In this document: positions 22,552 through 24,769 of the stretch, in pieces
Position numbering within the stretch: position 1 is the first letter of the stretch
How the letters are laid out: each line of letters starts with the position of its first letter
Source of the DNA: Candidatus Lindowbacteria bacterium RIFCSPLOWO2_12_FULL_62_27
GTDB lineage: Bacteria; Lindowbacteria; 2-12-FULL-62-27
NCBI GenBank assembly: GCA_001784175.1
Contig: MFPR01000001.1
Location: forward strand, 124,001 to 188,000
Direction: 5' to 3'
DNA: 64,000 nucleotides
Notes under the pieces: model-generated
Database searches by the model: none
What the model was told of the DNA's origin: nothing
What the model saw: only the letters and a program-made list of their open reading frames with translations
Position numbers and translations under genes: made by a program

Positions 22552-23376
22552 ATAACGCGCTCCTCCTTACACAACCGCAATTTTAAAATCCAAACCGGCG
22601 TCAGGGCCGTCTATGAGTATTCCGCCCTGCCCTCAACAAACGATCGCGCCAAACTTCTCGCAGTTCAGGGCGCGCCGGACCGGTCCCTCGTCATCACCTC
22701 CCGGCAAACCGCAGGTCGGGGCAGGGGCGGCAACCGCTGGTGGTCCGGCCAAGGATCGCTGACCTTCTCAGTCATTTTCAGGGTGCCGCGCACGTCGATC
22801 GCACTGCAGAATCTCGCTCCGATTTCCCTCGTCGCCGGCCTGTCCGTTGTCCGGACCGTCCGGCGGATTCATCCGGCATGCCCGGTCGCCCTCAAGTGGC
22901 CCAACGACATTTATTCGGGGCCGAAAAAGCTCGGCGGCATCCTGACGGAGAGCAGCGTACGCGCCGGCCGGCCCGCCAACCTGATCGTGGGGGTGGGGCT
23001 GAACGTCAACACAAGGTTCGAGCGTGCGCCGGCGGCCATCCGATCCACTGCAACGTCTCTTTGCCAAGGCACGTCGCCAAGCCATCGCATGGACGAAGCC
23101 CGGGTTCTGGCGTCTGTCTTGAAGGAGCTGTGCAAACTGGTCCGCCAATTCCTCAGAAGCGGATTTCAGCCCCTTTGCGACGAATGGACTTCCTTCGACG
23201 CCGTCCCATTCGGAAGCAGAATCAGCGTCGACGACGGCAATATTAATATGGAAGGACGCTACGAAGGCATTCTTCCGACAGGTGCACTAAAATTGCGTGG
23301 AGAATCGGGCCTCCACACGATCCTCTCCGGCACGCTCCGTCCCGTGGGCGTACTTCCCATAACGCATAAAGTGTAA
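22552..23376 (+). CDS. birA: biotin-protein ligase; non-canonical start; 3' end overlaps the dif/attL site
   Basis: frame open from 22546; PSTN, QTAGRGR..NRW, KWPND, KKLGGIL and GVGLNV motifs, the first two upstream of the ORF-track start at 22783. Confidence 0.88.
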   Translation: MTRSSLHNRNFKIQTGVRAVYEYSALPSTNDRAKLLAVQGAPDRSLVITSRQTAGRGRGGNRWWSGQGSLTFSVIFRVPRTSIALQNLAPISLVAGLSVVRTVRRIHPACPVALKWPNDIYSGPKKLGGILTESSVRAGRPANLIVGVGLNVNTRFERAPAAIRSTATSLCQGTSPSHRMDEARVLASVLKELCKLVRQFLRSGFQPLCDEWTSFDAVPFGSRISVDDGNINMEGRYEGILPTGALKLRGESGLHTILSGTLRPVGVLPITHKV

Positions 23377-24769
23377 ACTTGGTAGATGTATCTGATTGTA
23401 TACTGCTTTTTTCGTTACCTCCTCCCACTGTTGGGATAAGATTTTTTGGTCTGTACCGTTTGAAAACATCCATAACATAACGTTCGTCGGCCATGAGGGA
23501 CCAGGTGGAGTAATGGAGGCGGCCGGTCGGCATTTCCATGACGGGGATCCATTTCTGGGATACGGCCCAATCCAGGCGCTCCTCCGCCTCCGAAAGGTGC
23601 GTGGGCCGGCCGACGCGGCACATGTCGACGAGGTACTCCACGATCATGCGTTCACGCCAGGCGGTGGCGCAGCGATAGACGGCGCGTTCGGCAATCATCT
23701 GCCAGCGCCGGCAGGCGCCGAGTTCCCGGCGGTTGCATTCGAGTTCATGGCGGGCCTCCAGGCAGTCGCCGGCGTTGGCCTGGGCCCATTCGAGGAGGCG
23801 GGTCTTTGATTCGGCCTGGATGTCGTCGACCGACTTCGTCGGGATCCGTTCGAGACGCCGGCGCCAGTCGGCGAGGATGTCGGCTTTCGTTCTGGACGGA
23901 TCCTTGTCCCGGCGCGTGTTCATTTCGGCGGCCTTCGCGTTCGTAGTTGTGAGGAGGGCCTTCCGGATCTGCGCCTGGCGCGTCGAAAACTCCTCCTGGG
24001 CCTCGTGGGATACGAGGTCGGACCGCCACTGGCCATGGGGCATATAGGAGCGCTTGAGGTCGAAGCGGTGGAGGCGGGCGCGCAGTTCGTGCATGTAGAT
24101 TTGTGTCGCCAGATAGGGAAAGTCCCGGAAGTAAAATCGGGCGCCGTGGATGCCCGAAAAATGCGGCGCGCCATTTTTCTCCCACTGCGTGATGTTGAAC
24201 ACCAGCACATGGGAGGACAGGTGCGGATCATACTCGCGTGAGAAGCCGTCACGCAGGATCGAGTAGACCATGTTATCAGTCGATAGATCGACTTGAGTCT
24301 GGCCGCCCTTTCCCATCCTAGCACGAGAGTATCGTATCTCTATTTCCCGCATGGTCGCCAGGACCGCGTCATCATGCGCTGCCGTGATGTCGGCACGGGT
24401 CATATTGCGCGGTAGCTCAAAGCCGTCCATGAGCGCCAGCATGGAGATTGATTTGGGCGCGGAAAAGGCCCAGGAAAAGCAAAGTACCTTGTGTTTTTGC
24501 ACGATCTTTTTGCCGGCGGCGTCACAGCCTTTGAGCAGGTTCACCATGTCGTCCCGGCCAATGGGCTGCCCTTCCTCAAAGCCGAGGTAGGGCGCGGTTT
24601 TGCCGTAGACGCGGACTCCTACGGAGTCATCAGCCTGGTCAAAGTAGTAGTTTGTACTCTTGTCGTAGAAATAATCGGCGATGCCGACCGGGTCCTGTTT
24701 CATCGGGACGCCCCTAAACACGTCCCACCCCAACTTCGAATCGCGCGTTAGCTCCTTTCGGATCGACAA
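23243..24769 (-). CDS. MOBF (TrwC/TraA-like) relaxase: N-terminal half of the att-split relaxase-helicase gene
   Basis: DYF...NYY tyrosines, FSAPKSIS, SREYDPHLSSHVLVFN, FSTRQAQI, TRRDK; reads through attL into 35 host-derived codons. Confidence 0.88.
   Translation of the reverse strand: MSIRKELTRDSKLGWDVFRGVPMKQDPVGIADYFYDKSTNYYFDQADDSVGVRVYGKTAPYLGFEEGQPIGRDDMVNLLKGCDAAGKKIVQKHKVLCFSWAFSAPKSISMLALMDGFELPRNMTRADITAAHDDAVLATMREIEIRYSRARMGKGGQTQVDLSTDNMVYSILRDGFSREYDPHLSSHVLVFNITQWEKNGAPHFSGIHGARFYFRDFPYLATQIYMHELRARLHRFDLKRSYMPHGQWRSDLVSHEAQEEFSTRQAQIRKALLTTTNAKAAEMNTRRDKDPSRTKADILADWRRRLERIPTKSVDDIQAESKTRLLEWAQANAGDCLEARHELECNRRELGACRRWQMIAERAVYRCATAWRERMIVEYLVDMCRVGRPTHLSEAEERLDWAVSQKWIPVMEMPTGRLHYSTWSLMADERYVMDVFKRYRPKNLIPTVGGGNEKSSIQSDTSTKFTLYALWEVRPRDGACRRGSCGGPILHAILVHLSEECLRSVLPY
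23352..23379 (+). other. attL: hybrid dif site with degenerate XerD arm
   Basis: ACTTCCCATAA-CGCATA-AAGTGTAAACT; differs from the attR copy only at TTA->AAG. Confidence 0.9.

Follow-up and report, generated by a model that had tools for sequence, protein, structure and literature searches.

The 64,000-nucleotide stretch of DNA analysed here (the window: positions 124,001 to 188,000 of the forward strand of contig MFPR01000001.1, assembly GCA_001784175.1) comes from Candidatus Lindowbacteria bacterium RIFCSPLOWO2_12_FULL_62_27 and carries, between the host birA gene on the left and the gene of an ABC-transporter ATPase on the right, an element (23352-34390, Table 1) that encodes a viral capsid protein, a packaging ATPase and, at its opposite ends, the two parts of a relaxase-helicase. 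It is best explained as a temperate, tailless, membrane-type double jelly-roll (DJR) phage of the order of PM2 and the autolykiviruses, the Vinavirales. The capsid protein matches the P2_N (7.6e-26) and P2_C (1.3e-35) profiles, is 41% identical to the capsids of Vibrio autolykiviruses, with 66 phage records matched, and has 190 metagenomic homologues of up to 57% identity, many on contigs of 10-12 kb. The gene order is PM2-like, with the ATPase gene upstream of the capsid gene, when set against the PM2 record and a set of related loci (84 gathered through the capsid protein, including the window's own contig; 33 of the other 83 are at least 9 kb long), and in 12 of these 83 an ATPase homologue is found 5' of the capsid gene. 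Between the two genes a consensus promoter occupies the position of the PM2 late promoter (PM2 record; PMC1950889), and it is the sole 12/12 match among six promoter-like sites in the 11.8 kb scanned. The recognisable virion genes are all open.

Table 1. Features of the prophage in the window (coordinates count from the first letter of the window)
Feature	Position	Strand	Remarks
attL, dif-like 28-mer	23352..23379		XerC arm and centre identical to attR; XerD arm degenerate (AAGTGTAAACT)
Front half of relaxase-helicase gene	23351..24769	-	TrwC/MobF domain and helical middle region
Divergent non-coding control region	24704..25030		Between relaxase gene and RHH gene; hairpin and palindromes
RHH and PIN genes	25031..25670 (RHH 25031-25261, PIN 25254-25670)	+	Divergent from relaxase gene
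Distal virion/lysis genes	25726..29662	-	
Small ORFs, probably membrane	25726-26141, 28288-29662	-	
LamG-domain protein	26138-27172	-	
SLT lytic transglycosylase	27114-27722	-	
Conserved 182-aa virion protein	27738-28286	-	Homologues 3' of capsid gene in 30/83 related loci
P2-type double jelly-roll capsid gene	29673..30491	-	P2_N, P2_C
Sigma-70 consensus promoter	30668..30695	-	TTGACA-16-TATAAT, 12/12; between ATPase and capsid genes
Packaging ATPase	30888..31502	-	phrog_2666, 5.6e-17
Early-operon small genes	31503..33061	-	No family matches
184-aa protein	31503-32057	-	Weak C2H2 zinc-finger match
Small ORFs	32036-32284, 32281-32655, 32762-33061	-	
Back half of relaxase-helicase gene, SF1B RecD/TraA-type helicase	32991..34361	-	ORF 32991..34337; cut from start codon and upstream region
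attR, canonical dif-like 28-mer	34363..34390		ACTTCCCATAA-CGCATA-TTATGTAAACT; inner inverted repeat CATAA/TTATG

On the evidence of reading frame and homology, the relaxase and helicase open reading frames (ORFs), which lie 11 kb apart in the prophage, are halves of one gene that integration has parted. When the element is read as a circle by script, a single frame of 929 codons begins at 24769, crosses the repeat and stays open up to the stop codon at 32991. In the integrated state the front half (ORF 23243..24769, 508 codons on the reverse strand, likely to start at GTG 24721 or ATG 24703) continues instead for 35 codons antisense to birA as far as a stop at 23243, and public gene calls give it as a stand-alone protein of 486 residues (P0001). 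At the junction the left piece ends in FTLYALWEV, encoded by the dif-like site, and the right piece continues AFRKLLAGLELEES. Each of 11 full-length homologues (863-1042 residues, 31-38% identity) matches the left ORF with its N-terminal half and the right ORF with its C-terminal half. The fused ORF posited in the initial annotation is further borne out by an uninterrupted homologue of 896 residues, P0271, which is colinear with both halves: its residues 1-448 are 51% identical to the left piece (E 5e-148), the match ending at LWEV, and its residues 450-883 are 55% identical to the right piece (E 1e-154). The junction falls in a linker that AlphaFold2 models as disordered (predicted local distance difference test score, pLDDT, below 50 for residues 446-473). 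The back half matches AAA_30 (2.2e-38), UvrD_C_2 and the helicase part of the TraA_Ti model (3.4e-49), and the superfamily 1B (SF1B) helicase C-terminal to the relaxase that is characteristic of MOBF proteins is contiguous with it only in the circular reading. Because integration splits the gene, it would be whole only in the excised circle. As the two halves bracket the virion genes and no third dif-like site lies inside the element at up to 9 mismatches in 28, the relaxase must be part of the same element.

The relaxase domain is of the MOBF type, as the initial annotation had held, and is confirmed by both profile and fold. Pfam TrwC (PF08751) matches residues 31-308 with an E-value of 7.1e-41 and 141.1 bits against a cut-off of 25, and NCBIfam MobF (NF041492) gives 119.6 bits against a cut-off of 100; TIGR02686 (relax_trwC) gives 105.4, under its cut-off of 145.5. 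Sequence alignment to two relaxase domains of known structure, from F TraI and R388 TrwC, has E-values of 1e-13 to 1e-11, and a model built by AlphaFold2 from 35 input sequences (mean pLDDT 88.1) finds TrwC as its best Foldseek match (1zm5_A, E 2.4e-16, TM score 0.84 of the target, root mean square deviation 3.0 Å), followed by pKM101 and F TraI. Active-site columns were read from the best 150 representatives of the family, aligned together; P0271 is not in this set. The N-terminal tyrosines are in place, the columns of Y33, Y41 and Y42 holding tyrosine in 138, 122 and 117 of the 150; the catalytic tyrosines of TrwC are Y18 and Y26 (PMC5714925).

A word-indexed search returned no longer homologues of the relaxase half, and an exhaustive search then found them. 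The nearest that are full-length are annotated MobF relaxases in metagenome-assembled genomes, mostly of Elusimicrobiota. The window protein and P0271 form a clade with an SH-aLRT support of 100 in a quick-search tree of 57 rows (midpoint-rooted for drawing only), and with two full-length members some 51-55% identical this lineage looks, from the sequences, to be under selection. P0275, the best match of P0271 (on a contig of 11,718 bp), was considered as a further member of the variant lineage and rejected, having the ordinary aspartate and HxH motifs. A plasmid search with P0271 gave 4124 records, of which 3306 are typed as conjugative; identities are 24-26%, the alignments cover as much as 100% of the protein, and the best plasmid matches adjoin coupling-protein genes. 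Among phage records P0271 matches 408, none with coverage of at least 80%, and the best 12 of the 408 match the helicase half only. The relaxase half has no match among 50,697 GenBank phage records and no PHROG family. Scans of IMG/VR with the capsid protein alone, with the relaxase alignment and with P0017 (of the same 90% cluster as P0271) gave no match, and a scan with the capsid alignment gave four loci only.

None of the window's 15 other proteins was found at 82 loci (80 homologue and two unrelated; tblastn E 1e-3), and P2_N had no match in any of five homologue genomes, in a search that gave no signal in any control genome either. When ten flanking proteins of the homologue loci were scanned, one proved to be a coupling protein, at locus L012, 5 kb from a close relaxase homologue, the others including RadC, methylases and restriction-type helicases; among the five homologue genomes one has a coupling protein, on another contig. 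The conjugative context of the nearest homologues is, on these counts, only partly shown. Five of the homologous proteins (P0002, P0005, P0007, P0008 and P0013) share a similar short C-terminal tail (...GLEI, ...GLER, ...LSLEL, ...TLER), absent from the window protein and P0271; the tail may act as a signal for docking or translocation, which the phage lineage would have lost.

The limits of the element are set by two dif-like sites. Position 23351 is the first base of an 18-nucleotide core, TACTTCCCATAACGCATA, with a second copy at 34362; a pattern search finds it in just these two places in the window, 11,011 bp apart, with a chance expectation of 0. The right-hand site has the 11-6-11 layout of dif sites and agrees on its opposite strand with the Vibrio dif motif (PMC12715192) at 18 of 22 specified positions as counted by hand; beyond it comes the terminator of the host's ABC-ATPase gene. 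The stop codon of birA (23374-23376) lies within attL. The two sites are the only ones of their kind in the 4.39-Mb host genome (94% complete) at up to 5 mismatches. None of the 14 tyrosine recombinase matches in that genome falls in the element, and the host encodes XerC and XerD above the NCBIfam cut-offs (TIGR02224, 335.9 against 335.15; TIGR02225, 335.5 against 329.6). Given the lack of a recombinase of its own, its dif-like flanks, one of them canonical, and the host's XerC and XerD, the element has by sequence the features of an integrative mobile element exploiting Xer recombination (IMEX). A relative from another genus of the same family (G002) has a single similar site, with 2 mismatches, about 1 kb beyond its counterpart (78% identity) of the crp-family gene near the window's site, and within 10 kb of it none of the genes of the element, so the site is native to the host and the 11 kb has been inserted. 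At this locus of the relative (L172, contig C123, site at 9796 on the reverse strand) left synteny is kept, with the amidohydrolase-like gene and crp, and the 10 kb to the right share nothing with the right flank in the window; the dif-adjacent region therefore differs between the genera. The genome collection searched holds four species-level genomes of the host phylum, all of one family, and the relaxase was not found in the other three.

Some smaller features of the boundaries may be recorded here. The integration alters the last two residues of BirA, as comparison of attL with the canonical right copy indicates. The birA frame (22546-23376, forward strand) is open for 276 codons, and its GRGRxGxRW-type motif precedes the first ATG, GTG or TTG (22783), which seems to mean a non-canonical start or a sequence error. 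An 11-mer resembling a XerD arm (TTATGTAGACT, 1 mismatch) lies at 34312-34322 on the forward strand, 51 bp inside attR and in the first codons of the helicase half; with a rough expectation of about 0.2 it could be there by chance.

Comparison with related phages suggests what the relaxase-helicase gene replaces. The order in the window (relaxase-helicase, small ORFs, zinc-finger protein, ATPase, promoter, capsid) mirrors that of the PM2 record, XII(rep)-XIII-XIV-h-IX | VII-II. In ten relatives, taken from the 33 longer loci, the largest non-capsid ORF encodes a protein-primed-type PolB (seven) or an HUH Rep matching PF23343 (three). Where a rolling-circle Rep is present (L090, L093 and L095), it is encoded on the same strand as the capsid; L090 and L093 also share with the window the placing of the ATPase gene, which separates the replication gene from the capsid gene. 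L090, the closest of these relatives (capsid 54% identical, on a 69.7-kb contig), is also flanked by dif-like repeats, of proteobacterial type (3301-3328 and 14654-14681, 11,353 bp apart); like attL of the window, its left copy has a XerD arm that is degenerate and ends in ...AGTGTAAA, and its right copy is canonical. The window's element has none of the known Vinavirales replication modules (HUH Rep, PolB, Rep_trans, DnaD-like): its 36 ORF translations, on both strands, contain no other recognisable replication, primase, polymerase, recombinase or transfer family and no coupling-protein or type IV secretion system (T4SS) gene, in agreement with the initial annotation. Conversely, 14 relaxase and helicase queries found neither the relaxase nor this helicase in the other 83 capsid loci (tblastn E 1e-3). 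In the sources searched, these loci and the phage records among them, no other icosahedral virus turned up that has a conjugation-type relaxase-helicase as its apparent replication gene. Replacement of the replication module has been described in these phages (PMC1950889, PMC5894146, PMC9502842), and relaxases such as NicK of ICEBs1 start the autonomous rolling-circle replication of integrative and conjugative elements (ICEs; PMC5714925).

We consider it somewhat probable that the relaxase-helicase is the phage's rolling-circle initiator, whole only after Xer-mediated excision. The initiator role is inferred from its position in the replication slot, the lack of an alternative gene and the precedent of the ICEs. 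The phage, having no recombinase of its own, would integrate through host XerC and XerD at the dif-like site, and its replication gene, an HUH Rep or protein-primed PolB in its relatives, would have given way to a protein of 907-929 residues that unites a MOBF relaxase with an SF1B helicase. After excision this protein would nick one strand of the circle and remain bound by a tyrosine to the 5' end, while the fused helicase unwinds the duplex and a host polymerase extends the 3'-OH, so that the donor-side rolling-circle reaction of conjugation would be reused for the vegetative replication of a phage. With attP inside the disordered linker between relaxase and helicase, lysogeny would split the gene and excision restore it, tying replication to excision. 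The control region upstream is a candidate, on sequence grounds, for the location of promoters or of the origin, and has a hairpin with a 10-bp stem at about 24809-24833. A fuller version of this scheme, in which a DJR phage lineage took over a MOBF relaxase-helicase from conjugation, remodelled its active site (Asp/Ser/His, with serine for the aspartate), employs the enzyme as initiator and uses the attP in the linker codons (LWEV) as a recombination-gated switch, is possible, but we regard it as rather doubtful.

Several observations weigh against an initiator role. The metal site, which in TrwC consists of the three histidines H150, H161 and H163, reads D174, S185 and H187 in the window protein, in which only the last histidine is kept. 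D174 stands at the first metal-binding histidine, a column with aspartate in 21 of 145 rows, the window's own subfamily included; S185 stands at the first histidine of the HxH motif, where 145 of 146 filled rows have histidine and the window protein alone has serine. S99 stands at the conserved active-site aspartate (D85 of TrwC and D81 of TraI), in a column with aspartate in 143 of 147 filled rows and serine in two only, the window protein and P0017. Such substitutions may impair the enzyme or change the way it works. Neither a nick site nor an origin was found, and the 325-bp upstream region folds no better than its shuffles (z +1.14). In contigs from four sequencing runs (three studies) both junctions are spanned, always as in the integrated prophage, at a depth close to that of the flanks, and neither the circle nor the empty-site joint occurs; contigs drop rare forms, and some of the four runs may be the source of the assembly. 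The sequencing runs listed as carriers included none of RNA. The GC skew of the 292-kb contig has no sign change at the dif-like site, so that it is only a candidate for the terminus dif. The relaxase is known in a phage context from one genome only (the contig of P0271 is 10,614 bp long), and the small ORFs may hold an unrecognised initiator; several of them are coding-like in codon composition and match no family. What stands of the initiator proposed in the initial annotation is that this is the only recognisable replication-type gene and that it lies in the Rep slot of PM2 and its relatives; a nick site, an origin and a circle did not come to light.

A rival reading is that the gene is dead or decaying, the metal site lost and either the prophage defective or the protein now only a helicase or DNA binder. 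Serine at a near-invariant aspartate and at the first histidine of HxH, the presence of integrated copies only, at flank depth, and the splitting of the gene in the sole copy seen all fit such an account. However, both serines occur in the full-length, uninterrupted P0271 (CLSWAFSAPKS, DPHLSTH), which, at about 51-55% identity, means that the changes are old and retained rather than recent damage. In addition Y33, Y41, Y42, the last histidine and the fold are kept, no recognisable virion gene has a broken frame, and the reading frame is preserved exactly where the two halves join. We therefore think decay unlikely.

The initial annotation had offered mobilisation as its second possibility: the relaxase-helicase would transfer the excised genome through a helper conjugation system. 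On this reading replication would fall to the host or to an unrecognised small ORF. The family is overwhelmingly conjugative, as the plasmid records matched by P0271 attest, a close homologue has the coupling protein of L012 nearby, and some systems allow Rep and Mob proteins to exchange roles (PMC5714925). Against this, the element has neither coupling protein nor T4SS, and the host genome gives no match to VirB4 or to VirD4 (T4SS-DNA_transf), its two TrwB-like matches being the HerA and FtsK ATPases, so that there is no support for mobilisation by a resident helper. The window gene is the only TrwC gene of that genome, and it lacks, with P0271, the GLER/GLEI tail of several homologues from conjugative contexts. 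Mobilisation would also leave the phage without a replication gene in a slot that is filled in all ten relatives tested, and it is in our view quite improbable.

That the relaxase rather than Xer integrated the element, at an oriT-like target of which the repeats would be nick-site remnants, is very improbable. TrwC does integrate DNA site-specifically into copies of oriT (PMC3264647, PMC5714925), and the repeat here lies within the relaxase gene, but its architecture and its likeness to the Vibrio motif are those of dif, a near-identical single site exists in the element-free relative, and L090, which has no relaxase, has the same kind of flanks; XerC and XerD are moreover available in the host. 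A tandem of two independent elements at dif, a relaxase island and a capsid prophage, is hardly credible, common as IMEX arrays are at such sites (PMC12715192), since the data contradict it: the virion genes are enclosed by the two halves of a single gene, one at each end, and the internal dif-like site that had been named at the outset as the mark of such an arrangement is absent.

The phage departs in several respects from its closest known counterparts. Relaxases and viral Reps both belong to the HUH superfamily. The window gene and gene XII of PM2, which encodes P12, each stand at the head of the early operon, upstream of transcription factors, ATPase and capsid, and P12 is a tyrosine-mediated nick-and-join enzyme with its cleavage site within its own gene. 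The two proteins have no sequence match, and the P12-like Reps of relatives match PF23343, whereas the window protein does not. Attachment sites within genes have a precedent in SSV1-type fuselloviruses: their attP lies inside the integrase gene, which integration partitions and which is intact only in the episome. In those viruses the gene that is split encodes the recombinase, whereas in the window it encodes a putative initiator and the recombinase is the host's. The dif-type PM2-like prophages of Vibrio and Pseudoalteromonas (PMC12715192, PMC11630473, PMC1950889) share with the window's element a size of about 10-11 kb, the DJR capsid, the packaging ATPase and the PM2-like order, as well as the absence of an integrase, dif-like flanks of which one canonical dif is regenerated, and an exchangeable replication module. 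Their attP is placed between p15 and p16, both regulator genes (PMC12715192, PMC11630473), whereas that of the window lies within the replication-type gene; and their replication genes, in the passages cited, encode HUH Rep, pAS28-type, PolB, Rep_trans or DnaD-like proteins, in contrast to the MOBF relaxase-helicase.

The protein resembles TrwC of R388 and TraI of F and pKM101 in profile, fold, N-terminal tyrosines and SF1B fusion, but is only about 22-26% identical to them, has an Asp/Ser/His metal site and serine for the conserved aspartate, is borne by a virus, and belongs to an element with no coupling protein, T4SS or known oriT. Its use as an initiator would be closest to that of NicK in ICEBs1 and to Tn916 (PMC5714925, PMC3542172, PMC4595007), where a transfer-type nickase initiates replication of the excised element and there is no separate Rep; NicK, however, is of Rep_trans type, relies on a host helicase and is still conjugative, whereas the window protein has a fused helicase and no conjugation genes beside it. 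Both dif-type DJR prophages and the swapping of replication modules in the Vinavirales are already published, a point that the initial annotation, as with the two serines of the active site, had not noted. The novelty lies in the type of gene that fills the replication slot, in an attP located within it, and in an altered active site. The main texts (supplements aside) of PMC12715192, PMC1950889, PMC5894146, PMC9502842 and PMC11630473 do not contain the word 'relaxase', and literature searches for a relaxase in these viruses found no such report. Were the proposed function correct, it would widen the repertoire of replication modules exchanged between viruses and plasmids or ICEs, provide a naturally occurring relaxase whose metal site is unusual, and supply a direct evolutionary link from the DNA processing of conjugation to the replication of viruses; an attachment site inside the initiator gene would be a simple way for a prophage to hold replication off.

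The remaining genes show further particularities. In the regulator slot the element differs from the dif-type PM2-like prophages in having the ribbon-helix-helix (RHH) and PIN gene pair, which is vapBC-like and takes the place of the PM2 leftward regulatory operon. Two copies of CCGGTATAC, 11 nucleotides apart (24988-25007) and each with the palindrome GGTATACC, overlap a promoter-like site 5' of the RHH gene, and the paired palindromes are probably the operator of this pair. The ORF at 32281-32655 contains three 45-bp tandem repeats (32295-32445) with Pro/Ala-rich coding and matches no family. The gene of the LamG-domain protein has a much lower GC content (0.506), with a third-position value of 0.54 compared with 0.7-0.86 in the adjacent phage genes, and looks like a recently exchanged receptor-binding module.

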